Shown: one piece after another, positions 2-52,916 of the stretch
How the letters are laid out: every line of letters begins with the position of its first letter
How positions within the stretch are numbered: position 1 is the stretch's first letter
From: an uncultured cyanobacterium
GTDB lineage: Bacteria > Cyanobacteriota > Cyanobacteriia > CAKZMO01
Length of the DNA stretch: 64,000 nucleotides
Reading direction: 5' to 3'
NCBI GenBank assembly: GCA_963719515.1
Contig: CAVRCJ010000011.1
Span: 64,001-128,000 of the forward strand
Made by a program: the position numbers and the translations under genes
The notes under the pieces: model-generated
The model's database searches: none
What the model saw: only the letters and a program-made list of their open reading frames with translations
What the model was told of the DNA's origin: nothing

Positions 2-559
2 CAAACGCCTATACTAAAACCCCTGTCCTATCTACTGATTGAGCACGAAAATCTCTATCAATTTAATTTTGTAATACCCAGTATACTGACATCTACTTTT
101 GCATTACTTTTTATTGTCCTAGAACCTTATGTAATTATTTTTGGCTCAGGAGGGCTTGTTGAATCAATAAATAGCTCAATAGGAGCTTTAATAGGATTTT
201 ACATTGCTGCTTTAGCAGCTATTGCTACCTTTGAAAATAAAAGGCTAGATAAAATAATAGTAGGGCGACCAGCAACCTTAACTTACTTCAGTGCCGGCAA
301 AGAATATACTGAGAAGCTGACTCGGCGTAGGTTTCTGTCATTTTTATTTGGATATTGCTCGTTTACTTCAATTGTTTTATTTGTAGTTGGCACCTTTGCC
401 AATGCGTTTTATACAGGCGTTAAGCTTTTGGTTCCGCTTCAAGCTCACATGCCATTAACTCTTATATTCGCTTGCGGTTATATCTTTGTTTTCTTCAACC
501 TTATAATAACTACATTTTTAGGCCTATTCTACCTATCTGATCGTCTTCATCGAGATTGA
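2..559 (+). CDS. Partial (5' end outside window) AT-rich membrane protein with about 4 TM helices, not in the ORF track
   Basis: Frame 2 is open from the window start to TGA at 557-559. Translation QTPILKPLSYLLIEH...GFYIAALAAIATF...LTRRRFLSFLFGY...TFLGLFYLSDRLHRD has four hydrophobic segments. Visibly lower GC than the backbone and no HIP1. Confidence 0.75.
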   Translation, partial: QTPILKPLSYLLIEHENLYQFNFVIPSILTSTFALLFIVLEPYVIIFGSGGLVESINSSIGALIGFYIAALAAIATFENKRLDKIIVGRPATLTYFSAGKEYTEKLTRRRFLSFLFGYCSFTSIVLFVVGTFANAFYTGVKLLVPLQAHMPLTLIFACGYIFVFFNLIITTFLGLFYLSDRLHRD

Positions 560-705
560 GCTATCAACTGCTCAAGCAATCGCGCATTTTATACCCATCA
601 TCAGCGCCAATACAGATTTTGGTGCCTATGCAATTCAGAGAATCCGGACGTAGATAGAGAAGTCAAAAATTGGCAGTCGACTGGCTTCAATCTCAATGAC
701 TACGG

Positions 706-2041
706 CAGGGTAAGCGCAAGAAAAAAACCGATATAAGATGCTATGGGGGAACGCAGGGACAACCACCATAGGCAGAGACATGACGAGCAAAGGATTTGGT
801 AAATCTACACCGCCCAATGAAGCGTGCAACCGAGCCCAGGGAGTGCCAGTCTTTGTCGATGGAGACAACAGCGTACAGCAGCAGTGGCTGGGTACCTTTA
901 GTGAGCTGAAAGACCCACGAGGGCCACAGGGGATAGAGCATCCGTTTTTGAGCATTGTGATGATAGCAATTTTGGCGACTATCGGCGGCGCAAGGGGATG
1001 GGAGGACATCGAAACCTATGGGGAAAGCCACGAGCAGTGGCTGGGGCAGTTTCTTGAATTGCCTAAAGGGGTGCCTAGTGCTGACACCTACAGACGGTTA
1101 TTCGAGCGCATCGAGCCAGAGGCGCTAGAGCGGTGCTTTTTGTTATGGGTGAAGCAGATTGCCCAAGTGACAGGAGCTCAGGTGATTCCGATTGATGGCA
1201 AGAGCGTGCGCGGCTCCTACGACCGAGGCAAAAAGCAGTCGGCATTGCACCTAGTAAGTGCCTGGAGCAGTGAGCACCAGCTGCTGCTAGGGCAAGTGAA
1301 GGTAGAGAGCAAGAGCAATGAGATCACGGCTATTCCAGCGCTATTGGAGCTGCTCGACATCAGTGGGTGTATCATCACGATTGACGCAATGGGCACTCAG
1401 CACGAGATTGCTAAGCAGATTGTTGCCAAAGGCGGGGACTATGTTTTGTGCCTGAAGGCGAACCATCCGACCCTCTCAAAGCAGGTGAGTGACTGGTTCG
1501 ATAAAGCTCAGGCAACGGGATTTGAAGGCATTGAGCACAGCTACGACCGGCGATGTGACGGAGCTCATCAGCGCATTGAGCATCGGCAGGTGTGGGCAGT
1601 GCCTTTGAGTGCGATTGAACCTGTGCATGGTCAAGCCCAGTGGTCAGGGCTGCAAAGCATCGTCATGGTCAAGCGCGTGCGGCACCTGTGGAACAAGACG
1701 ACTCAAGAGACGATGATGTATTTGACCTCACTCCCTTGTGATGCCGTCGCCATTGGCCGGGCAATTCGCACCCATTGGAGTATCGAAAACCAGCTGCACT
1801 GGGTACTCGATGTGACTTTTGGCGAGGATGCTTCTCGCATTCGCTCGGGGCATGCCCCACAGAATATAGCCCTACTGCGGCGCATGGCTATCGGTATGCT
1901 CAACCAGGAAACCTCTAAGAAGCGAAGTCTAAGTCAGAAGGCGAAGCGAGCCTCGATGAGTCCTGACTATATGCTCACAGTCCTCTCCGCCGCACTCTCG
2001 CCATAGCACATTTTTATGATGTTTTTCTTGCGCTTACCCTG
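706..2041 (+). mobile_element. Complete ISAs1-family insertion sequence (1336 bp)
   Basis: Perfect 20-bp terminal IRs CAGGGTAAGCGCAAGAAAAA (706-725) and its reverse complement (2022-2041). 10-bp direct repeat ATGACTACGG at 696-705 and 2042-2051. Encloses the transposase. Confidence 0.95.
738..2006 (+). CDS. ISAs1-family DDE transposase (true start may be downstream, e.g. 780)
   Basis: Motifs DPR, IDGKSVRGS, KSNEITAIPALL, TIDAMGTQ, HWSIENQLHWVLDVTFGED. Confidence 0.95.
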   Translation: MLWGNAGTTTIGRDMTSKGFGKSTPPNEACNRAQGVPVFVDGDNSVQQQWLGTFSELKDPRGPQGIEHPFLSIVMIAILATIGGARGWEDIETYGESHEQWLGQFLELPKGVPSADTYRRLFERIEPEALERCFLLWVKQIAQVTGAQVIPIDGKSVRGSYDRGKKQSALHLVSAWSSEHQLLLGQVKVESKSNEITAIPALLELLDISGCIITIDAMGTQHEIAKQIVAKGGDYVLCLKANHPTLSKQVSDWFDKAQATGFEGIEHSYDRRCDGAHQRIEHRQVWAVPLSAIEPVHGQAQWSGLQSIVMVKRVRHLWNKTTQETMMYLTSLPCDAVAIGRAIRTHWSIENQLHWVLDVTFGEDASRIRSGHAPQNIALLRRMAIGMLNQETSKKRSLSQKAKRASMSPDYMLTVLSAALSP

Positions 2042-2111
2042 ATGACTACGGCGATCTCTATAGCTTTCTCAAGATCAAGTGTTCGCTCAAAAGTCATAGC
2101 ATTTGCTAGTC

Positions 2112-2148
2112 ATGCCGAGGCGATCTCGCTGCGAGATCGCCTCGGCAT
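2112..2148. repeat. Perfect palindrome with 18-bp arms and a 1-nt centre
   Basis: ATGCCGAGGCGATCTCGC-T-GCGAGATCGCCTCGGCAT. Confidence 0.85.
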
Positions 2149-2216
2149 TCTATTCGCCCTCAAACAACAAGCTACAATTCACGTAGTGTCCAGAGAGTTT
2201 CAGGTAAAAGCTCCTC

Positions 2217-2453
2217 ATGATCCAACCTACACTCTTAGAAAAGCTAGAAGCTTTGCCCGAGCACCTTCAGGTCGAAGTGCTCCACTACGTTGAGTTCTTG
2301 CTAGAAAAGAAAGTTAACGGCAAAGCTATCCCTATACATGAATCACCTAAGGCGCAGGACGAAAACCGCTACGGCTATGGCAGCATGGCTGGACAAATTA
2401 CCATGTCAGATGATTTCGATAAGCCTCTAGAAGAATTAGCGGAATACATGTAG
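2217..2453 (+). CDS. DUF2281-like antitoxin (VapB-type)
   Basis: LEALPEHLQVEVLHYVEFLLEK and a C-terminal GSMAGQITMSDDFDKPL. Directly upstream of a PIN-toxin start. Confidence 0.8.
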   Translation: MIQPTLLEKLEALPEHLQVEVLHYVEFLLEKKVNGKAIPIHESPKAQDENRYGYGSMAGQITMSDDFDKPLEELAEYM

Positions 2454-2454
2454 C

Positions 2455-2607
2455 ATGGCAGCGCTTTTAGATACCCATGTGCTGCTGTGGTACGTGATGG
2501 CTGATGACAGGTTAAGCGATCGCGCTAAATCACTCGTCGACACGCGGTCAGACCTATTTTTCAGTACCGCTAGCCTATGGGAAATTTCAACAAAGATCAG
2601 CGGCAAA
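2455..2607 (+). pseudogene. Truncated VapC/PIN-domain toxin (N-terminal ~50 aa)
   Basis: MAALLDTHVLLW...LS..A...FFSTASLWEISTKIS is a PIN N-terminus. The rest of ORF 2455-2739 is antisense of the Uma2 fragment. Confidence 0.8.
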
Positions 2608-2799
2608 AATCGCGTAGGGCTGCTTGCGAAGCGCTGCCTTGAGCAGAAAAATCAGCGTCGTGATGATCTCATTATGCTCAGGCGCGCCGCCAGTCATCGG
2701 AACAATTTCTCCAGCGCGGTATTCGCTGCGGGTCTCTGACGCGACCTCCAAAGCAAGGTAGTCTTCAGCCGTGTAGGTTTTACCGGCAGCAATAACCAT
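2587..2799 (-). pseudogene. Truncated Uma2-family endonuclease (N-terminal ~70 aa)
   Basis: YTAEDYLALE..SETRSEY..GEIVPMTGG.PEHN.I is a typical Uma2 N-terminus. It ends before the PD-(D/E)xK core. Confidence 0.8.
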
Positions 2800-2970
2800 A
2801 GCGTTCCCTGTGTATTGCCCCTCAGCCCCGAGGAGAGCTATCGCTATCCTAGCAAGCTAACGAAAGGGCCATTGACCCAACCGCCCCCCATGCTGTAACG
2901 TGATACGCCATAGCCCTAATACAGCTATACGCCTATGTAACGAACCAACGCAACAAGCCATTATTACGCT

Positions 2971-3112
2971 CCCTGGAAGTGCAGCAACACGACCAGAGAG
3001 CTAAGCCCCAGCGCTGAAGGAAGCAGCACGGAGGCCTACGAGGCATTATGCCACTCCCGTAGCGCCACCCTGTTTGTCCTGCCCAATTTTTACGGGCACC
3101 AGCGGGGTGGCT
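2971..3112 (+). ncRNA. Putative structured leader RNA, copy 1 (homologous to 52445-52563)
   Basis: Shares CCCTGGAAGTGC..CAACAC..CCAG, CTAA.CCC, CGCTGAA..CAGC.CGGAGGC and a terminal GC-rich stem with the minus-strand copy. Confidence 0.6.
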
Positions 3113-3185
3113 TGATTGTTTTTGGCCCATCATCGGCGATCGCCGTTCGATCGATAAACCATCGCATCGATACGGCATCGGCACG

Positions 3186-3213
3186 GTAGGGCCATGGCAT
3201 GCCATGGCCCTAC
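3186..3213. repeat. REP-like perfect 28-bp palindrome starting with GTAG; a degenerate relative lies at 3314-3341
   Basis: GTAGGGCCATGGCATGCCATGGCCCTAC; second unit GTACGGGCACAGCACGCTGTGCCCCAAC. Confidence 0.7.
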
Positions 3214-3254
3214 AAAAATATCGGACCCATCCAAAACAATTCGGGAGAAACCCC

Positions 3255-3563
3255 ATGACCGCGACGAATTACAGCGATCGCTCCAATCAATCCGATCATC
3301 ACCCCAACCCCCCGTACGGGCACAGCACGCTGTGCCCCAACCCAACCAATCGCCCCAATCCCTTTCCCCAGCCTCAAGACCCCAACAACGACGTTCTGCA
3401 AATCATCGCCATCGGCCCCCGCACCACCGTCGACCACTACATGATTCGCCAGCACCAGCTCGGCTACGCAGAACCCAAAGAGTGGAGCCCTCCCCTTCCC
3501 GCCCCCGACGGTATCAACACCATGCGCATCCTCACCAAGCGCTTCCCCAAACGGCGAGACTAG
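3255..3563 (+). CDS. Small hypothetical protein, 'HQLGYA..WS.P' family, copy 1
   Basis: GGAG RBS before ATG 3255. Core LQIIAIG...V......HQLGYAEPKEWSPPLPA....MRILTK aligns with 52167-52406. Confidence 0.75.
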   Translation: MTATNYSDRSNQSDHHPNPPYGHSTLCPNPTNRPNPFPQPQDPNNDVLQIIAIGPRTTVDHYMIRQHQLGYAEPKEWSPPLPAPDGINTMRILTKRFPKRRD

Positions 3564-3634
3564 CCGCGCCTGCGCAATAGCCTGAGCGATCGCTGCCGTG
3601 AAAGAGCGGCGATCGCTCAATCTAAACCGAGAAA

Positions 3635-4813
3635 CTACTGGCCCTGACTAGGCAGATAGCGCTGCAGCAAAGACGACCAATCTGATTCACTCAACTCCTG
3701 CAAAATCTGCTGGTTTAACGATTCTCGCAGGGGGGAATTGTTGGGGAGCGCAAATGCGTACTGACTAGCTTGAATGCCCGTGCTTTCTATCTGAAGACGC
3801 TTTTGAAAATCGTCTTGATTTAGCGTCTGCAGCGTCGTCGCGCCATCTACAAAAGCGTCAATTTCGCCGCTGGCAACCGCTTCTAGGCCCGCTTTGGGAG
3901 CAGAAAAGGTCTGAAACTGAATTTGCTCCTGCTTCAGGTACTGAGCTGCAGTAGAGTTCTCGATGCTGCCCACCTGCATCGACGTCAAATCCTCTATTGG
4001 AAGAGGCTGAATTCCCTCATTAAGCAATAAAACCGAGGTGATTGACGAAGTAAGACTTGCCGTAAGTCCCATCGCCACAAGCATCCAGATCAGGGCTAAA
4101 ATACGCCCCAGAACGGTTTGGGGCGCTTTATCCCCATAGCCAATTGTCGTCATAGTGACGCCAGCCCACCAAAAGCCATCCCAAATGCCTTTGATCGGAG
4201 ACTTGCTGTACATATTCTCGTTGGAGCTCCGCTCAAAAAGCCAGCACAGCAGCCCCACCACAAATAAGATCATAGACAGCCCAAGGCAAATTTTCAGGAA
4301 CTGAGGCGACACGACGGCTTTGACAACTTCCCACAGCCGCTGTCTCCGTTTCGTGGCAATGCCCAACGTCGTGGCGAAGTAGCTCTGAGTAAAGTTCACC
4401 CGCTGCTCCCTAGCGACAGTGGCGGTCATTAGGGCGACGTCTAGGGTGCCGGATTCTAGCTGGGCAACTGCCTGCTCCGGCTGAACTTCGCGCCACTGAT
4501 AGTCAAGGTTGAGTTCGTAGGCCATTTCGCGCCAGAGCTGCACACCAATGCCATCCCAATCGGTATCGCCCTGATTGTTGCTGGATTTGATAACGAAGGG
4601 TGGGGCAGAGAGCAGTCCCACCGTCAGGGTTCGCCCTTCTGAGCCTATTGGACTGGCGGGAGCCGCTTGGGGAGCTTCGCGAGACGCCTCCGGCGTTTGG
4701 GCTACGGTGAACGCTCTAGGAAGAACAAGAAGCAGACAGACTATCAGCGCACTTAACACATAAGATAGAGGCCTCATTCTGCAAGCAATCGCTCGCTGCT
4801 TTCTTGCTCCCAT
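3635..4813 (-). CDS. GluR0-like ligand-gated K+ channel (split periplasmic binding domain plus pore)
   Basis: SBP family 3 halves flank a TM-pore-TM segment with WWAGVTMTTIGYGD. Confidence 0.85.
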   Translation of the reverse strand: MGARKQRAIACRMRPLSYVLSALIVCLLLVLPRAFTVAQTPEASREAPQAAPASPIGSEGRTLTVGLLSAPPFVIKSSNNQGDTDWDGIGVQLWREMAYELNLDYQWREVQPEQAVAQLESGTLDVALMTATVAREQRVNFTQSYFATTLGIATKRRQRLWEVVKAVVSPQFLKICLGLSMILFVVGLLCWLFERSSNENMYSKSPIKGIWDGFWWAGVTMTTIGYGDKAPQTVLGRILALIWMLVAMGLTASLTSSITSVLLLNEGIQPLPIEDLTSMQVGSIENSTAAQYLKQEQIQFQTFSAPKAGLEAVASGEIDAFVDGATTLQTLNQDDFQKRLQIESTGIQASQYAFALPNNSPLRESLNQQILQELSESDWSSLLQRYLPSQGQ

Positions 4814-27199: not shown

Positions 27200-27254
27200 A
27201 AAAAAAATCCCCGACCAAAAGCTGGTCAGGGATTGAATCAGGGTGCATCTACCA
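27200..27254 (-). ncRNA. NsiR1-like small RNA (about 55 nt) with intrinsic terminator
   Basis: Minus strand TGGTAGATGCACCCTGATTC, then hairpin ATCCCTGACCA-gcttt-TGGTCGGGGAT and a T-run. The 5' segment matches my recollection of the NsiR1 5' end. Confidence 0.55.
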
Positions 27255-33189: not shown

Positions 33190-33262
33190 AGTAAACCTCT
33201 AAAGTCGTTAAGTAGTGAACCGTTAGTGGAACGCCTCTTCAAAAACTGAAGCGAGGCGAAAA

Positions 33263-33365
33263 TGCGTTCCTTCAGGGCGAACCCTACTTCCGTCTTCGGG
33301 TTTTCGTTGAATCAGGCTCTTGAGATAAAGCGAGCTGATTCAAGATGAACCAGAAGATGAACGTT
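33263..33365 (-). promoter_or_regulatory. Glutamine riboswitch (glnA motif, class I) with extended P2
   Basis: Minus strand CGTTCATCTTC...GAAGACGGAAGTAGGG-ttcg-CCCTGAAGGAACGC, upstream of a DUF4278 gene, the known context. Confidence 0.88.
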
Positions 33366-45198: not shown

Positions 45199-45865
45199 AT
45201 GTGCCCCCAGACGATTTTGATTCTGTCGGCAAATCCTAAAGGCACCCCGGCCCTGCGCCTCGACGAGGAGGTGCGGGAAATCAAGGCGGGCCTAGAGCGA
45301 TCGCCCCACCGCGATTTGTTTCGCATTGAGCAGGCGGAGGCGGTGACGCCGCGAGACGTGCAGCGGGCGATGCTGAAGCATGAGCCGCAGAATTGTACAT
45401 TTTTGCGGCCACGGCAAGGGGGAAGACGGCATCTTGATGGAGGGCGTCGGCGGTCAGCCGCAGCTGGTGAGCGAGCGGGCGCTGTCGAAGCTGTTTGAGC
45501 TGTTTGCCGACGAGATTGACTGCGTGCTGCTCAACGCCTGCTACTCGGCGGTGCAGGCGCGGGGCATCGCTCAGCATATTGGCTCGGTGGTGGGGATGAG
45601 CAAGGCCATCGGCGATCGCGCGGCAATTGAGTATGCGGTGAGCTTTTACGATGCGCTGGGGGGTGGGCGAGATTTTGAGTTTGCCCATCGGCTGGGGTGC
45701 AATGCGATCGAGCTGATGGGGATTGACGAGGCGCTGGTGCCGGTGTTGGTTCAGAAGGGTGATGGCCTCCTTTCGTCTTCTGCGGCTGATACCGCTGGCG
45801 AAAGGTTGGGCGAAGGCTGCTCAGTCCCCCAAAATTGGGGGACTTTGACATTGGAAGCCCTCTAA
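45199..45865 (+). pseudogene. CHAT (caspase-like) domain gene with a frameshift near 45391
   Basis: ILILSANP...LRLDEE.REI in frame 1 continues as IVHFCGHG...VLLNAC...VVGM in frame 2. CCGCAG-A-ATTGTACAT carries one extra A. Confidence 0.85.
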
Positions 45866-45915
45866 ATCCCCCAATCGACGACCTTCGGTCACGCTCCGCG
45901 AAGGGAGACTTTGAC
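45824..45915. repeat. Cyanobacterial CCCCCAA/TTGGGGG hairpin repeat cluster
   Basis: GTCCCCCAAAATTGGGGGAC palindrome, GACTTTGAC twice, and a second CCCCCAA unit. Confidence 0.6.
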
Positions 45916-45928
45916 GTAGCTGACCCGC

Positions 45929-47527
45929 TTGAGCGGCCAGACTGCCCATGTCTTCGTCAGCTACAAGCGCGGCGTGGAGCCAGATGAGCGGGTGGCCAAG
46001 GCGATTTACGAGGCGCTCTCGCCTCAGCATGAGGTGTTCATTGACCAGACGATGCCGGTGGGCACCCGGTGGATGGAGCGCATCGATGCGGAGATTCAGC
46101 GATCGCACTTTATGGTGGTGCTGCTGTCAGCGCATTCGGTGCAGAGCGAGATGGTGATCCTGGAGCTGGAGAAGGCGCAGCACAACGCGAGCCATGCGGG
46201 ACGACCTAAGCTGCTGCCGGTGCGGCTGGGGTATCGGGAGCCGTTTCAGTATCCGCTGAGCGAGTATTTGAACCCGATTAACTGGGCTTTTTGGCAAGAC
46301 GAGGGGGATACGGCGCGGCTGGTGCAGGAGCTGGAGGGGGCGATCGCGGGGCAGCCGCTCACCATTGAGACCCAGGCGGCGAAAGACGAGCTGGTGACGC
46401 CGGAGCCGGACGCGGAGCCTATTGAGGCCCCGCCGCCCCCCATCGCTCAGCCCCATCAAGCTAGAGCCCATCAAGCTAGGGCCCATCAAGCTAGGGGCCA
46501 TCAAGCCAAAGCCCCAGAAAAGCTGGAGCTGCCGGAAGGCACCATGACCGTGGAGTCGCAGTTTTACGTGGCGCGGCAGGCAGACCGCATTGCCCTAGAG
46601 ACCATTGGCGAACGGGGGGTGACGCTGACGATTAAAGGGGCGCGGCAGGTGGGCAAAAGCTCGCTGTTGATTCGGGTGATGGCGGCGGCGCGGCAGGCGG
46701 GAAAGCGGGTGGCGTTTCTGGATTTCCAGATGTTTGACAAGACCACGCTGCACAGCGCCGACGCGTTTTTCTATCAGTTTTGCCTGTGGCTGAGCGATGC
46801 GCTGGAGGTGGAGGACGAGGTGGACGCCTACTGGCAGCGCCCGGAGGGCAACCGCCAGCGCTGCACCCGCTATATGCGACGGCACATTTTGCCGAAGCTG
46901 ACCGGGTCGCTGGTGCTGGCCATGGATGAGGTGGAGAGCATTTTTGATACGCCGTTTCGCACGGATTTCTTTGGCATGCTGCGCAGCTGGCACAACCAGC
47001 GGGCCAGTAGCGACTCCTGGCGCAAGATCGACCTGGCGCTGGTGACCTCTACCGAACCGTATCAGCTGATTGACGACCTGAACCAGTCGCCCTTCAACGT
47101 GGGGGAGGTGCTGGATTTGGAGGATTTCTCTATGGCCCAGGTGCTGGAGCTAAACCAGCGCCACGGCGAGACGCTGACGCCCGCTCAGGCGCAGCAGCTG
47201 ATGGGGCTGGTGAACGGCCATCCGTATTTGGTGCGCAAGGCGCTGTATCTGGTAGCGCGGGGGCGGATGACGGCGGCAGAGCTGTTTGACCAGGCGGCGC
47301 AGGAGCGCGGCCCGTTTGGCGATCACCTACGCTATCACCTGTTTCGCGTTTACGATAAGCCGGAGCTGGTGGCGGCGCTGCTAAAAATCATTCGCCAGCG
47401 CAGCTGCCCGGATGAGCGGCTGTTTTTCCGGCTGCGGGGGGCGGGGCTGGTGCGGCGCGACGGCCAGGCTATTGCGCCTCGGTGTGAGCTGTATGGGATT
47501 TATTTTCAGGAGCATTTGCGTGGGTAA
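45929..47527 (+). CDS. TIR domain plus AAA_35-type (STAND-like) NTPase
   Basis: HVFVSYKR..VFID...G..W...I...VVLLS..SV.SE.V..E; Walker A GARQVGKSS; Walker B LAMDEVE; QSPFNVG; GHPYL. Confidence 0.9.
   Translation: MSGQTAHVFVSYKRGVEPDERVAKAIYEALSPQHEVFIDQTMPVGTRWMERIDAEIQRSHFMVVLLSAHSVQSEMVILELEKAQHNASHAGRPKLLPVRLGYREPFQYPLSEYLNPINWAFWQDEGDTARLVQELEGAIAGQPLTIETQAAKDELVTPEPDAEPIEAPPPPIAQPHQARAHQARAHQARGHQAKAPEKLELPEGTMTVESQFYVARQADRIALETIGERGVTLTIKGARQVGKSSLLIRVMAAARQAGKRVAFLDFQMFDKTTLHSADAFFYQFCLWLSDALEVEDEVDAYWQRPEGNRQRCTRYMRRHILPKLTGSLVLAMDEVESIFDTPFRTDFFGMLRSWHNQRASSDSWRKIDLALVTSTEPYQLIDDLNQSPFNVGEVLDLEDFSMAQVLELNQRHGETLTPAQAQQLMGLVNGHPYLVRKALYLVARGRMTAAELFDQAAQERGPFGDHLRYHLFRVYDKPELVAALLKIIRQRSCPDERLFFRLRGAGLVRRDGQAIAPRCELYGIYFQEHLRG
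46452..46511 (+). repeat. 15-bp in-frame tandem repeat x4 in the TIR-NTPase linker
   Basis: CCCATCAAGCTAG(A/G)G units encoding HQARA-like peptides. Confidence 0.8.
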
Positions 47528-50500
47528 GCCAAACCGCAATATCTACACCCCTGGAGGCACGGTGCAGGCAGGGCAGGGCATCTATTTAGAGCGGCAGGCC
47601 GACGCGCAGCTGCTGCAGCTTTGCCAGGAGGGGGTGTTTGCCTATGTGCTGACTTCGCGGCAGATGGGCAAGTCGAGCCTGATGGTGCATACGGCGCGGC
47701 GGCTGGCGACCGAAGGGGTGGTGACCCTAATTGTGGACCTGACGGATGTGGGGGTGCAGGATGTGACGGCGGATGCCTGGTATCGGGGCTTTTTGCTGGA
47801 GATTGAGGCGAAGCTGGAGTCGCAGGAGCGGTTTTTGGATACCGATGTGTATGCCTGGTGGGAGGCGCACCACTATTTGACGGTGTCGCAAAAGCTGTCG
47901 CGGTTTTTCCGCCATGTGCTGCTGGAGGAGGTGGAGGGGCCGGTGGTGGTGTTTGTGGATGAGATTGACACGACCTTGAGCCTGGATTTTACGGACGACT
48001 TTTTTATTACGATTCGCTCGTTTTATACGGCGAGGGCGCAGGATGCGGCGTTTCAGCGGCTGTCGTTTGTGCTGATTGGGGTAGCGACGCCGGGGGATTT
48101 GATTGTGGACTCGAAGCGAACGCCGTTTAATATTGGCCAGCGGGTGGAGCTGACGGATTTTGGCTATGGGGAGGCGCTGCCGCTGGCGGCGGGGCTAGCG
48201 CTGGGGGGGACGGCTCTGGCTGGAGACGGGCCTGGAGGGACAAGCGCAGCGGGGCGGGAGCGGGAGGTTTTTGAGCGGGTGCTGCACTGGACGGGGGGGC
48301 ATCCGTATTTGACGCAGCGGTTGTGCATTGAGCTGGCGCGGTATGGAGGTGGGGGTGAGCCGACTGGTCTTACCCCCCTTAGTCCCCCCTTAGAAGGTGT
48401 GATAGAGCCTACACAAGCTGGTTTTACCCCCTCTAACTCCCCCTTAGAAGGTGTGATAGAGCCTACACAAGCTGGTTTTACCCCCTCTAACTCCCCCTTG
48501 CTAAGGGGGAGAACTGGAGGCTTCCGCGCAGCGCGTCCGCAGGATGCAGGGGAGTTAGAGGGGGTGAACCCGAACGCTGAACTCTCGGCCAAAACCGTTG
48601 ACCAAGTTGTCAGCCGCACCTTCTTTGGTGAGAAGAGCGAGCAGGACAACAATCTGCAGTTTGTGCGGGATATGCTGACTACTCGATCGCCTAACGTGCT
48701 GGAGGGGCTGGCGATTTACCGGGCGGTTTGGCGGGGGCGGCGGCCCGTGGTGGATGAGGAGCAGTCGATTGTTAAGTCGCATTTGAAGCTGTCGGGGGGG
48801 GTGAAGCGGCAGGGGCAGCGGCTGGTGGTGCGCAATGAGATTTACCGGCGGGTGTTTGATGGGCGGTGGGTGCGGGAGCATTGGCCGGAGGGGGTGTGGG
48901 AGCGGCTGAGGCCGGCGATGCCGTTGATTGCGGGGCTGACGGTGGTGGCGCTGGGGATGAGCGGGCTGGCGGCCTATGCAGTGGGGCAGCGGAACCGGGC
49001 AGAGCAGCAGACGGCACTTTTAGAAGAGGCACTACTGCGGGAAGAAGAGCAGCGGGAGTTTGCCTTGAATAAGGCAGAAGAGGCCGAGGCAAATGCGAAA
49101 CAAGCCAGGCAGAACGAAGCAGAGGCGACGCGGCAATCAACGCGGGCTGAGAAAAATTTGAAAGACGCCCAACTGGCTCAGCAGCAGGCGGAAGCGGCGA
49201 AGCTGGCGGAGCAGGGGCAGCGGCAAGAGGCTGAAACACAAACGGCTATTGCGCAAGAACAAACCACAATTGCGCAGGAGCAAACCGTTTTGGCAGAGCA
49301 GCGGCTTGAGGAAGCAGATTCTGCAACGCTCTTGGCAAAGCAACGGTTGAGTGAAGCCGATGCGGCGAAGCTGCAGGCTGAACAAGAAAGCCGCATTTCG
49401 CTGGCGCGGCAGCTTGCGGCACAATCAGAATACTCGCGACGTCAGCGACTTGATCTGTTCCCTCGAAGCATCTTGCTGGCAGTCGAATCGATGAAGCGGC
49501 TGATGGACTCATCCACATCCACCGCAGACACCCACCAAGCGCTCCATAGCCTAAAAACCTTGCCCCCCAAAGCATCCCGCATTGCCCATGAGGGGGCTGT
49601 CTATGACGTGCGGTTTAGCCCCGACGGGCGCTACCTGGCAACCGGCAGTAGGGACAATACGGCGCGGGTGTGGGACGTTGCGGCAAACCAAGAGGTGGCC
49701 CGCATTGCCCATGAGGGGTGGGTCGTTGACGTGCGGTTTAGCCCCGACGGGCGCTACCTGGCAACCGGCAGTGAAGACGGTACGGCGCGGGTGTGGGACG
49801 TTGTGGCAAACCAAGAGGTGGCCCGCATTGCCCATGAGGGGTCGGTCGTTGACGTGCGCTTTAGCCCCGACGGGCGCTACCTGGCAACCGGCAGTGAAGA
49901 CGGTACGGCGCGGGTGTGGGACGTTACGGCAAACCAAGAGGTGGCCCGCATTGCCCATGAGGGGTGGGTCGTTGACGTGCGGTTTAGCCCCGACGGGCGC
50001 TACCTGGCAACCGGCAGTTTGGACAATACGGCGCGGGTGTGGGACGTTGCGGCAAACCAAGAGGTGGCCCGCATTGCCCATGAGGGGTCGGTCTATGACG
50101 TGCGGTTTAGCCCCGACGGGCGCTACCTGGCAACCGGCAGTGAAGACGGTACGGCGCGGGTGTGGGACGTTGTGGCAAACCAAGAGGTGGCCCGCATTGC
50201 CCATGAGGGGTGGGTCGTTGACGTGCGCTTTAGCCCCGACGGGCGCTACCTGGCAACCGGCAGTGAAGACGGTACGGCGCGGGTGTGGGACGTTGCGGCA
50301 AACCAAGAGGTGGCCCGCATTGCCGAGGGGTCTGTCGTTGACGTGCGGTTTAGCCCCGACGGGCGCTACCTGGCAACCGGCAGTAGGGACAATACGGCGC
50401 GGGTGTGGGACGTTGCGGCAAACCAAGAGGTGGCCCGCATTGCCCATGAGGGGTGGGTCGTTGACGTGCGGTTTAGCCCCGACGGGCGCTACCTGGCAAC

Positions 50501-51800
50501 CGGCAGTTTGGACAATACGGCGCGGGTGTGGGACGTTGCGGCAAACCAAGAGGTGGCCCGCATTGCCCATGAGGGGTCGGTCGTTGACGTGCGCTTTAGT
50601 CCCGACGGGCGCTACCTGGCAACCGGCAGTAGGGACAGCACCGCCCGGGTGTGGGACATTGCGGCAAACCCAGAAGTCGCCCGCATTGCCCATGAGGGGT
50701 ATGTCGAAGACGTGCGCTTTAGCCCTGACGGGCGCTACCTGGCAACCGGCAGTAGGGACAATACGGCGCGGGTGTGGGACGTTGCGGCAAACCAAGAGGT
50801 GGCCCGCATTGCCCATGAGGGGTGGGTCGTTGACGTGCGGTTTAGCCCCGACGGGCGCTACCTGGCAACCGGCAGTTTGGACAATACGGCGCGGGTGTGG
50901 GACGTTGCGGCAAACCAAGAGGTGGCCCGCATTGCCCATGAGGGGTCGGTCTATGACGTGCGGTTTAGCCCCGACGGGCGCTACCTGGCAACCGGCAGTA
51001 GTGACAATACGGCGCGGGTGTGGGACATCGCGGCAAACCAAGAGGTGGCCCGCATTGCCCATGAGGGGTGGGTCGTTGACGTGCGGTTTAGCCCCGACGG
51101 GCGCTACCTGGCAACCGGCAGTAGTGACAATACGGCGCGGGTGTGGGACATCGCGGCAAACCAAGAAGTCGCCCGCATTGCCCATGAGGGGTATGTCCTT
51201 GACGTGCGGTTTAGCCCCGACGGGCGCTACCTGGCAACCGGCAGTTTGGACAATACGGCGCGGGGGTGGGACGTTGCGGCAAACCAAGAGGTGGCCCGCA
51301 TTGCCCATGAGGGGTCGGTCTATGACGTGCGCTTTAGCCCTGACGGGCGCTACCTGGCAACCGGCAGTGAGGACAACACGGCGCGGGTGTGGGACGTTGC
51401 GGCAAACCAAGAGGTGGCCCGCATTGCCCATGAGGGGAATGTCCGTGACGTGCGCTTTAGCCCCGACGGGCGCTACCTGGCAACCGGCAGTTGGGACAGC
51501 ACGGCGCGGGTGTGGGACGTTGCGGCAAACCAAGAGGTGGCCCGCATTCCGCATGATGAGAGCGTAGGAAGCGTGCAGTTTCACCCCACAAAACCCTACC
51601 TGCTCACCCGCAGCGGCAACGTCGCCGAAGTCTGGATGCTCGACCCCAACGACCTGATGGCCGAAGCCTGCCGCCGCCTCACTCGCAACCTCACCCTTGA
51701 CGAATGGCGACAGTACCTCGGCGACGAACCCTACGAGGCCACCTGCCCCGACCTCCCCCGCCTCGATCGCGAAACTGAAGCCCCAACCGCAAGTCGCTGA
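47520..51800 (+). CDS. AAA_35-type NTPase - TM - coiled coil - WD40 repeat protein
   Basis: GTG 47520 overlaps the upstream stop. Y.PGG.V, TSRQMGKSS, VFVDEID, RTPFNIG, WTGGHPYLTQRLC; one TM (LIAGLTVVALGMSGLAAYAV); E/Q/A-rich coil; 17 WD40 units; tail C..L.RNLT..EW..Y. Confidence 0.92.
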   Translation: MGKPNRNIYTPGGTVQAGQGIYLERQADAQLLQLCQEGVFAYVLTSRQMGKSSLMVHTARRLATEGVVTLIVDLTDVGVQDVTADAWYRGFLLEIEAKLESQERFLDTDVYAWWEAHHYLTVSQKLSRFFRHVLLEEVEGPVVVFVDEIDTTLSLDFTDDFFITIRSFYTARAQDAAFQRLSFVLIGVATPGDLIVDSKRTPFNIGQRVELTDFGYGEALPLAAGLALGGTALAGDGPGGTSAAGREREVFERVLHWTGGHPYLTQRLCIELARYGGGGEPTGLTPLSPPLEGVIEPTQAGFTPSNSPLEGVIEPTQAGFTPSNSPLLRGRTGGFRAARPQDAGELEGVNPNAELSAKTVDQVVSRTFFGEKSEQDNNLQFVRDMLTTRSPNVLEGLAIYRAVWRGRRPVVDEEQSIVKSHLKLSGGVKRQGQRLVVRNEIYRRVFDGRWVREHWPEGVWERLRPAMPLIAGLTVVALGMSGLAAYAVGQRNRAEQQTALLEEALLREEEQREFALNKAEEAEANAKQARQNEAEATRQSTRAEKNLKDAQLAQQQAEAAKLAEQGQRQEAETQTAIAQEQTTIAQEQTVLAEQRLEEADSATLLAKQRLSEADAAKLQAEQESRISLARQLAAQSEYSRRQRLDLFPRSILLAVESMKRLMDSSTSTADTHQALHSLKTLPPKASRIAHEGAVYDVRFSPDGRYLATGSRDNTARVWDVAANQEVARIAHEGWVVDVRFSPDGRYLATGSEDGTARVWDVVANQEVARIAHEGSVVDVRFSPDGRYLATGSEDGTARVWDVTANQEVARIAHEGWVVDVRFSPDGRYLATGSLDNTARVWDVAANQEVARIAHEGSVYDVRFSPDGRYLATGSEDGTARVWDVVANQEVARIAHEGWVVDVRFSPDGRYLATGSEDGTARVWDVAANQEVARIAEGSVVDVRFSPDGRYLATGSRDNTARVWDVAANQEVARIAHEGWVVDVRFSPDGRYLATGSLDNTARVWDVAANQEVARIAHEGSVVDVRFSPDGRYLATGSRDSTARVWDIAANPEVARIAHEGYVEDVRFSPDGRYLATGSRDNTARVWDVAANQEVARIAHEGWVVDVRFSPDGRYLATGSLDNTARVWDVAANQEVARIAHEGSVYDVRFSPDGRYLATGSSDNTARVWDIAANQEVARIAHEGWVVDVRFSPDGRYLATGSSDNTARVWDIAANQEVARIAHEGYVLDVRFSPDGRYLATGSLDNTARGWDVAANQEVARIAHEGSVYDVRFSPDGRYLATGSEDNTARVWDVAANQEVARIAHEGNVRDVRFSPDGRYLATGSWDSTARVWDVAANQEVARIPHDESVGSVQFHPTKPYLLTRSGNVAEVWMLDPNDLMAEACRRLTRNLTLDEWRQYLGDEPYEATCPDLPRLDRETEAPTASR
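48376..48566. repeat. In-frame repeat insertion: 54-bp tandem duplication plus inverted repeat
   Basis: CCCCTTAGAAGGTGTGATAGAGCCTACACAAGCTGGTTTTACCCCCTCTAACTC twice; ACCCCCTCTAACTCCCC pairs with GGGGAGTTAGAGGGGGT. Confidence 0.8.
49578..51542 (+). repeat. 16 near-identical 123-bp WD40-coding repeats (unit 7 lacks one codon); a divergent 17th unit follows
   Basis: Consensus RIAHEGxVxDVRFSPDGRYLATGSxDxTARVWDVAANQEVA. Confidence 0.97.
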
Positions 51801-52166
51801 GCTATGGACGGAACCATTGGCCCACCGTACCGCCAATAGACTGTCTCATCCCGCATCACGCTGATTGGCTACGCTTCGCGATCGCCCGCAGCTCAAGCGC
51901 GGGCTATTGAACGCCGTCCGCTCAAGCGGACTCCTGAGGGGAGGTCGATGCTCAGAATTTGGGCCAGAAGGTGCTTCAACCCACTTGAGTGGGTGTTTTC
52001 AGCTAGCCCACGATTTGTCTGCGGGTGGAGGTGAACGCACAGCCAAGCTGCTCATGAAAGGCCCACCCCCTATTTCCCAGCAGCGTCTTTATAGTCGTGG
52101 GTGCCCTAACAGAACGCGATCGCCAAGGGCAGGGCGCGACAGCAACGCCCCACCCTCTAGCCCGTT

Positions 52167-52406: not shown

Positions 52407-52444
52407 GGATGTCTCCTAGATAATAGAGGAGAGCGCCAAACAAA

Positions 52445-52563
52445 GCAGCCGCCCCACGCCATGACAAAGCGGGGCGGCTACTCTAAAATCTTGAGAGCCT
52501 CCGCGCTGGTTTGTTCAGCGTTCCGGGGTTAGTCTCCTGGCGGTGTTGGTAGCACTTCCAGGG
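52445..52563 (-). ncRNA. Putative structured leader RNA, copy 2
   Basis: Stems CCTGG/CCAGG with inner GTG/CAC, CGCTG/CAGCG and AGCCGCCCC/GGGGCGGCT. Homologous to 2971-3112. Confidence 0.6.
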
Positions 52564-52916
52564 GACGCTAGGTTTTAAGGCCGATCTCTTGAGGCGTTCT
52601 CCTCGGTGGTTATAGAACAAATGGACCCAATTGCGTCCATGGGTTGGCAGTGTAGCGGGTTTTAGGCACAAACACAACCATAATTAAAGAGTTTTTTAGG
52701 GCCGCGATCGCTCCCCTAAGCGCACAAACCATAAATGCTATGCTAGACAAAATTAACGCCCCTGCTTCCCGGTCCTGTGTTTTACACCCCCCTTCCCTAG
52801 GCTAGATGCAGTTCATTCAACCCAACCCCGATGCTCCGACCAGCCGCAATCGCATCCCTTAAGAGTTTGGAGAACTGCTAGCAACCTATTCGTTTAGTTG
52901 CCGCGTCTAACCGCCT

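Follow-up and report, generated by a model that had tools for sequence, protein, structure and literature searches.

A predicted SymR-like antisense RNA and a predicted mRNA switch upstream of a multicopy cyanobacterial small protein: a candidate type I toxin–antitoxin-like cassette

Introduction

SymR is a 77-nt RNA encoded on the strand opposite symE's 5' end and transcribed from a promoter inside symE, as described by Kawano et al. (2007, PMC1891008). In the account of hok/Sok given in PMC9841398, antisense binding leads to decay by RNase III. According to the report on the Microcystis pair MsoT1/MsoA1 (PMC12390103), toxin–antitoxin (TA) systems of type I have so far been almost unknown in cyanobacteria; that pair is a candidate type I system, called there the first in the phylum Cyanobacteria.

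Here we describe a locus that recalls these systems, found twice in a 64,000-nucleotide stretch of DNA (the window) from an uncultured cyanobacterium. An initial annotation, made from the sequence alone, had proposed that the window holds an RNA-controlled small-protein system without a name. Our analysis supports that proposal, and a literature search, with most subscription journals outside its coverage, found no description of the family.

Results

Two copies in the window

Both ORFs of the proposed system are present, one on each strand (Table 1), and their protein homology was confirmed (26 of 56 residues identical, E 7e-15). Every stem that had been named upstream of them is there as well, including an A-T to G-C change in stem 3, and both leaders fold more stably than any of 200 shuffles (z -3.7/-4.2 on the sense strand and -3.6/-4.8 on the antisense strand). 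The extent and nature of the element needed revision. It comprises leader and ORF, as first described, but also reaches upstream to promoters at 2872 and 52677. The stems of what had been read as a single sense-strand, three-stem leader are real, but they belong to two things: a predicted antisense RNA, formed by stems 1 and 2, and an mRNA switch, formed by stem 3 and a long-range helix between a 5' box and a 3' box that the first reading had missed.

The two copies differ in detail. In copy 1 the register of the 5' box is atypical, its partner (3109-3118) overlapping the base of stem 3, and the distance from the leader motif to the ATG is 291 nt, with 288 nt in the one paralogue that shares its extra insertion, compared with 162-206 nt in the other type A copies. 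A stricter independent promoter scan called neither the sense nor the antisense promoter of copy 1. The copy 1 antisense RNA matched the Rfam symR model over positions 1-77 (33.4 bits, E 1.4e-4, cut-off 61), and the same search gave no match for copy 2; against our own model, R1, for which both were themselves training sequences, they scored 76.5 and 81.1 bits, respectively. A HIP1 site stands just outside the copy 2 sense promoter (52704-52711). The hairpins downstream of the two ORFs show no sequence conservation between copies. The N-terminal extension of the copy 1 protein (window 3300-3350) holds a dispersed palindromic repeat that also occurs outside family ORFs, for example at G000:C6:482279-482438.

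Table 1. Predicted features of the two cassette copies, in window positions.
Feature	Position	Strand	Details
Copy 1 sense promoter	2872-2901	+	-35 2872-2877, 18-nt spacer, -10 2896-2901; predicted start near 2908
Copy 1 5' box	2946-2959	+	Sequence inspection; family-level helix
Copy 1 SymR-like antisense RNA (predicted, about 75 nt)	2959-3037	-	Stem 1 2968-3001, stem 2 3011-3029
Copy 1 antisense -10 box	3045-3050	-	CATAAT type, TG before it; position fixed in 34-row alignment
Copy 1 stem 3	3062-3111	+ (mRNA strand)	Folding, RNAalifold, strand test, covariation
Copy 1 extra hairpin-rich insertion, ~115 nt	3120-3235	+	Between leader and ribosome-binding site; one paralogue has it too
Copy 1 ORF, 102 aa	3255-3563	+	Variable Pro-rich N-terminus, ~55-aa conserved domain; SD 3243-3248
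Copy 1 downstream hairpin, possible 3' end	3583-3619	+	Contains HIP1 sites
Copy 2 sense promoter	52649-52677	-	-35 52672-52677, -10 52649-52654
Copy 2 5' box (anti-anti-SD)	52589-52601	-	Pairs with 52427-52440 in whole-leader MFE fold
Copy 2 predicted SymR-like antisense RNA	52496-52575	+	Stem 1 52532-52568, stem 2 52504-52520
Copy 2 antisense promoter	52461-52489	+	ATGACA-17-TAAAAT; sole promoter called by the independent scan, 10/12 matches
Copy 2 stem 3	52444-52482	- (mRNA strand)	Terminator-like in copy 2
Copy 2 3' box/anti-SD and SD	52412-52440	-	3' box/anti-SD 52427-52440, SD 52412-52417
Copy 2 ORF, 79 aa	52167-52406	-	Predicted beta-alpha-beta-beta fold, homodimer
Copy 2 downstream hairpin, possible 3' end	52127-52155	-	

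A large cyanobacterial family

The module had been taken to occur twice. Both window copies are real, but the 5.28-Mb genome holds 77 loci rather than two: an iterated profile gave 78 domain hits, two of which are halves of one frameshifted locus. Elsewhere, a single 43-aa query picked up the family protein in 23 of 41 relatives, and a survey across the cyanobacterial phylum did so in at least 31 of 251 genomes. The family comprises 750 protein clusters at 50% identity, and every named homologue is cyanobacterial. Thirteen cyanobacterial plasmids carry it, and genes for ParG, Rep and HTH proteins lie close to the plasmid homologues; on an Anabaena variabilis plasmid (L175 1190-1920) the family gene lies between a divergent ParG gene and a Rep gene, with a hairpin ~350 nt apart from the family ORF. 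The protein had no match in 50,697 phage records. Many homologues have no long leader; what precedes them is a divergent HTH or RHH regulator or else a single hairpin. One natural protein (P0004) carries two tandem copies of the family domain, and a TIR-domain protein (P0124) ends in it, possibly as a read-through artefact.

Anatomy of the cassette

We curated 62 leader-bearing copies from the 78 hits and sorted them into three subtypes, A (which includes the window copies), B and C. Left out were 13 hits without a motif match, some of which do have leaders, together with one false motif, one duplicate half and one hit without a start codon. A leader-bearing copy is a cassette of 550-750 bp that consists of a promoter, a leader of ~220 nt and the ORF, which is intact and in frame in 55 of the 62. 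Its parts follow in the order promoter, 5' box, stem 1, linker, stem 2, antisense -10 box, stem 3, 3' box/anti-Shine–Dalgarno (anti-SD), SD and ATG. The promoter pattern TTG-N3-N16/18-TA-N3-T was present within 110 nt in 60 of 62 copies, compared with 3.1% of random windows. The cyanobacterial LexA consensus was absent from all 61 sense promoters searched, other operators being possible, and no NtcA pattern was found in the family promoters.

In the 59 copies with a BLAST partner, homology between paralogues begins close to the -35 box (median -11 nt) and ends close to the stop codon (median -1 nt). The duplicated unit is therefore the gene itself. Inspection by eye showed neither terminal repeats nor target duplications in the flanks. 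At G000:C11:319563-319641 there is an orphan promoter and antisense RNA region without a family ORF.

Stems 1 and 2 belong to a predicted antisense RNA

We aligned 34 type A leaders from this genome and its relatives with MAFFT, blind to structure, and asked on which strand each helix tolerates G-U pairs. Stems 1 and 2 held 58 A-C or C-A cells, each a G-U pair when read on the opposite strand, and 2 G-U cells. The bias was the other way in stem 3, with 36 G-U cells and 5 A-C or C-A, and in the long-range helix, with 23 and 10. Stem 1 of subtype B agreed with the opposite strand even on the sense-derived structure (12 against 4). Subtype C agreed for lower stem 2 and the SD hairpin, its stem 1 being ambiguous according to the structure strand used (26 against 3 one way, 29 against 5 the other).

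An antisense -10-like hexamer occupies a fixed place in all 34 rows (29 TAnnnT, 5 CATAAT or AATAAT), 7-9 nt before the predicted RNA start; the alignment showed no conservation of an antisense -35 element. A looser test for TAnnnT over all 62 copies found it in 50, compared with 45% of shuffled sequences. The predicted RNA is 69-86 nt long. Compared with Rfam, the leader resembles symR. The best three of four genome-wide symR hits are family leaders, all antisense, and 5 of 20 type A leaders match, all antisense and over the full model, with scores of 25-39 bits (best 38.9) that lie under the gathering cut-off of 61. Position 1 of the symR model coincides with the start predicted from the -10 box. 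The RNA is symR-like but under the gathering score, so the control RNA would be a distant version of a known kind. Taken together, opposite-strand structure, -10 box and SymR likeness show computationally a predicted SymR-like antisense RNA. Both it and the mRNA would be transcribed, and antisense control of the family protein is, on these sequence features, very probable. In a single RNA run, 4% of words were present; the six assembled contigs came from relatives, give neither strand nor level and may contain DNA. Six short motifs compared with part 1 of 11 of Table S3 of PMC4734099 gave no recognisable family member in that part.

A covariance model built for the antisense RNA (R1) gave 23 full-length hits in the genome with E below 4e-8, 20 of them training sequences, and matches in two sets of genomes (18 of 41, 16 of 151). 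These matches bear on the possibility, raised at the outset, that the leader is a generic repeat unlinked to the protein. Among 30 R1 loci, a family ORF lies downstream on the opposite strand in 25, the ORF is truncated in one, two lie at a contig edge and two are orphans; a further 22 loci comprise 15 with a family ORF, two with a full leader and a 197-aa protein, two of a short form and three apparent chance matches (the weak hits L098, L120 and L121). RNA and ORF are therefore linked, as the 25 of 30 and 15 of 22 loci attest.

The same RNA module also fronts two unrelated protein families. At L116 (~1500-2387) and L119 a full leader precedes an unrelated 197-aa cyanobacterial protein without a Pfam family. 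L118 (~1162-1580, minus strand) and L127 hold the short, SymE/SymR-like form, in which SD and ATG directly follow stem 2; it fronts a 110-aa protein and is duplicated 5 kb apart in a mobile-element-like operon.

A predicted switch in the mRNA

For the 34 type A leaders RNAalifold predicted the three stems, and also a long-range helix in which the 5' box pairs with the 3' box. With the helices extended by hand, compensatory changes occur at 24 of 36 pairs, a number reached by none of 500 shuffles, with slid controls giving 6-15. In 59 copies the 3' box has two possible partners, the 5' box and the SD region, and would use overlapping bases for them. Cognate box pairings beat non-cognate ones in each subtype (permutation p 5e-5 to 0.045, uncorrected for relatedness); because the copies are related, the shuffle and permutation values overstate the case.

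We then compared the predicted cost of opening the ribosome site in the 52 intact copies. It was 7.6 kcal/mol in the full leader and 10.1 kcal/mol with the 5' box blocked (up in 41 copies, down in 3). In the 3' fragment left after cutting out the antisense-covered part it was 10.5 kcal/mol (46 up, 3 down), and with that part merely blocked, without cleavage, 8.4 kcal/mol (32 up, 15 down). Prediction and covariation thus point to an SD hidden by mRNA structure, with an alternative open fold. There is no conserved upstream ORF in the leader, where 27 of 62 copies have no ATG and frames are even. Nor is there a conserved terminator at stem 3: a U-tract follows it in 22 of the 53 copies with a located stem 3.

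Recognition loops differ between copies

All 17 readable stem 1 loops of type A differ from one another. We compared loops in 16 of the 17 closest disjoint paralogue pairs, excluding one pair with a synonymous difference of 0.56. The antisense loops differ at 117 of 216 sites (54%), compared with 147 of 623 (24%) in the mRNA-only loops and linkers; the stem 1 figures may be inflated by gaps, and the stem 2 loop alone, which is mostly of fixed length, differs at 54 of 110 sites. The mean synonymous difference of the same pairs is 0.31. Two pairs with identical control regions (0/38 and 0/32) differ at 8/13 and 6/13 loop sites. An antisense RNA's longest possible perfect duplex with another copy is 24 nt (median). 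Copies that gain by escaping each other's antisense RNA would be expected to diverge in this way.

The protein is a predicted soluble homodimer

The family protein is 79-158 aa long, with a variable N-terminus and a mildly basic core domain (median pI 8.7). Its near-invariant residues are only W, G, A, S, P, M and L, and pooled dN/dS is 0.31 over 25 of 27 pairs, which marks the ORF as coding and the protein as conserved. No membrane helix was found in 54 proteins of 79-158 aa, in which the maximum 19-residue hydropathy is 1.2. AlphaFold2 gave a beta-alpha-beta-beta monomer (pLDDT 88.6) and a homodimer (pLDDT 83) with an ipSAE of 0.76, against 0.01 for the best control, and with runs agreeing in 100% of contacts; in calibration, 20 of 30 solved homodimers and 1 of 23 monomers came up to the mark for a dimer. 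We therefore describe the protein as a predicted soluble homodimer.

Sequence searches of Pfam, NCBIfam, PHROGs, PADLOC and the PDB gave no family, and the ESM Atlas returned only unnamed cyanobacterial clusters (0.85-0.86). Foldseek, which had been suggested as a check, was run on the predicted structure and, like the other fold searches, returned only generic alpha/beta arrangements with no clear fold match (best Z 4.4 for the monomer); the natural tandem protein reached Z 5.8, its second half being modelled poorly. For an AbrB/MazE-like fold, too, these searches gave no clear match to the beta-alpha-beta-beta model. MinE was rejected as a relative (hhalign probability 0.4% and E 0.16 against the genome's own MinE; Foldseek rank 4, E 1.0), as was SymE, for which the genome has no PF08845 SymE_toxin match while the E. 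coli control was positive. The name 'peptide ABC transporter substrate-binding protein', used by one source, has no support in the family searches.

Genomic context

The accessory or defence-like borders reported for both copies hold for their local neighbours, but each copy also abuts an ordinary gene (a K+ channel and a cation:proton antiporter), and the pattern is not genome-wide. Upstream of copy 1 (window 2-2799) lie a PDC-M53B-like membrane protein, an ISAs1-type transposase, a DUF2281 protein with a truncated PIN partner, and a Uma2 fragment; on its other side is a GluR0-like ligand-gated potassium channel (3635-4813, minus strand; SBP_bac_3 and Ion_trans_2). Beside copy 2, window 45380-51800 encodes a CHAT fragment, a TIR+AAA_35 protein and an AAA_35+WD40 protein in a defence- or signalling-like block with near-identical repeats at the DNA level. 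The window also contains, above Rfam cut-offs, an NsiR1 sRNA (27200-27254, minus strand) and a glnA glutamine riboswitch (33261-33365, minus strand), which, like the cyanobacterial named homologues, mark the host as a cyanobacterium.

Across 40 sampled regions, in which 148 of 258 ORFs were scanned, neighbours are a mixture of housekeeping, IS, restriction–modification and type II TA genes, including psbA (four times), enolase, psaL, chlH, purU, gcvP and several DNA-repair genes, with no conserved partner gene. The four copies adjoining psbA genes are L137, L139, L152 and L155; others adjoin the repair genes recQ, ada, photolyase, XPB, priA and ligase. Of the 62 copies, 30 have HIP1 within 90 nt upstream and 18 have it downstream, against a background of 12%. 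At all nine congeneric loci with orthologues of the neighbour genes, the flank examined held no family ORF, which fits turnover without demonstrating clean insertions. Clean empty sites were not found among the relatives, whose contigs are short, because synteny with them is poor.

Discussion

Among the options first offered for this system, a type I TA-like pair fits best; the layout, in which an RNA from the opposite strand would keep a small protein silent, is one often seen in TA pairs. We envisage a stand-alone, self-propagating type I TA-like cassette working in five steps. First, a sigma70-type promoter, whose conservation is observed, would produce an mRNA with a ~220-nt leader. Second, the 3' box would either hide the SD (off) or pair with the 5' box and free it (on); both pairings are conserved and covary, from which we infer the switching. 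Third, a convergent promoter within the leader would yield a SymR-like antisense RNA that spans the interval from one box to the other, as predicted from the -10 box, the strand-specific folding and the symR likeness. Fourth, the antisense RNA would pair first through its two loops, which differ between copies, making each copy's own RNA its main silencer; the duplex would then be cut, probably by RNase III, so that the 5' box is removed and the SD stays hidden. This step is drawn by analogy with hok/Sok and agrees with the folding simulation. Fifth, and least certainly, the small soluble homodimer would inhibit growth by binding a cellular target rather than by forming pores, and each copy would therefore be retained as an independent addiction unit. 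We hold the first three steps jointly with high confidence; for the statement as a whole our preference is slight, and so is it for the toxicity of the protein.

A different role for the protein is the most serious competitor, although an unlikely one. Under the same antisense switch, the protein may be not a toxin but a factor that spreads the cassette, or an early function of a mobile element. RNA-OUT limits IS10 and countertranscripts limit plasmids; here the antisense RNA would limit the protein, and loop divergence would let new copies escape inhibition by residents. The sharp cassette boundaries, the HIP1 enrichment at the edges, the nine family-free congeneric loci, the plasmid homologues near ParG, Rep and HTH genes and the two unrelated protein families behind one RNA module all speak for it. 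However, a 55-aa domain without conserved catalytic residues is unlikely to be a recombinase, and neither terminal repeats and target duplications in the flanks nor clean empty sites have come to light.

Less probable still is that the antisense RNA controls transcription attenuation instead of translation, as it does in pT181 and pIP501, with stem 3 as a terminator whose U-tract is hidden by the 5' box. Stem 3 of copy 2 was called terminator-like, the 3' box includes a U-run, and the 5' box reaches into the base of stem 3 in copy 1 and in the paralogue closest to it. We nevertheless give this proposal little credence, since most of the stems 3 that we located lack a U-tract and the hairpin between 3' box and SD is conserved and cognate-specific.

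A purely cis-acting leader without a functional antisense RNA (a riboswitch, a thermometer or a protein-binding switch, possibly bound by the encoded dimer) is very improbable. A two-state SD switch needs no trans factor, and the core domain is mildly basic, but such a leader would leave unexplained the opposite-strand G-U tolerance of stems 1 and 2, the antisense -10 box, the strand-consistent symR hits, and the hypervariable loops, which a ligand-binding RNA would keep.

C4 antisense RNA lies on the same strand as the operon it regulates, and type III TA systems carry tandem RNA repeats upstream of a ToxN/CptN/TenpN nuclease. A C4-like control RNA or a type III pair, both raised in the initial annotation, or a generic dispersed repeat unlinked to the protein, would account for a multi-stem RNA upstream of a small ORF and for the few orphan RNA copies, but these ideas are already largely refuted and deserve scarcely any weight, given that there is no C4-family Rfam match, that structure is selected on the strand opposite the ORF, that the leader is single and non-repeated before a protein with no ToxN-like or other Pfam family, that RNA and ORF are tightly linked, and that the phage records hold no match.

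On the boldest reading, the family would be the first large type I TA family of cyanobacteria and a new class of soluble dimeric toxin, with dozens of copies per genome, private specificity through diversifying selection on two recognition loops, and a SymR-like RNA serving as a portable control module before unrelated proteins; we advance this larger claim tentatively, at a little under even confidence. It would extend the SymR architecture beyond Proteobacteria and beyond SymE. Since one genome offers dozens of natural cassette variants with complete predicted anatomy, three questions become directly testable: whether cyanobacteria make wide use of type I TA systems, how the specificity of the antisense RNAs diversifies to let many copies live side by side, and what the small dimeric protein targets. 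Even if the protein is harmless, the family is a ready library of potentially orthogonal antisense switches.

The closest described relative is SymE/SymR (RF01809). Like SymE/SymR as published (PMC1891008), the family has a cis-antisense RNA of ~77 nt, here a predicted one, over the 5' end of the mRNA and a convergent promoter inside the unit, and is multicopy and scattered, SymE/SymR having at least 14 copies in Erwinia; the two also have in common a two-hairpin layout, linker and loop motifs, and a soluble rather than a membrane protein. Unlike SymR, the family RNA scores below the symR cut-off, and the protein is neither SymE nor AbrB-like by sequence. The family antisense promoter lies in the leader, not in the coding sequence, and the RNA, about 90-220 nt ahead of the start codon, covers neither SD nor AUG; only in the short variant L118/L127, which has a different protein, are both covered. 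The family promoters also lack the cyanobacterial LexA-box pattern.

The switch finds its parallels elsewhere. In hok/Sok, as set out in PMC9841398, a 5' element (tac) traps an anti-SD box (ucb) and opens translation, much as predicted here, whereas the family has no conserved mok-like leader peptide, no conserved 3' fold-back element (homology stops at the stop codon) and no membrane peptide. timPR, by its description (PMC13000454), likewise has a long 5' UTR, whose SD-sequestering hairpin is opened without processing by a long-range interaction, but there the proteins are unrelated to ours, and the family differs in that its antisense gene overlaps the leader. Ibs/Sib, in the account of PMC2943612, resembles the family in its multiple chromosomal copies and in repression mainly between cognate pairs; it differs in its hydrophobic peptides, its five copies and an antisense RNA that spans the gene. 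MsoT1/MsoA1, with one or two predicted membrane helices against none here, is set apart by its description (PMC12390103), and most type I families encode a short hydrophobic membrane peptide, which by its hydropathy the family protein is not. The best reading of these likenesses is that the system would work like a type I TA system that combines a SymR-type antitoxin with a hok/timP-type activator switch, without being a member of SymE/SymR.
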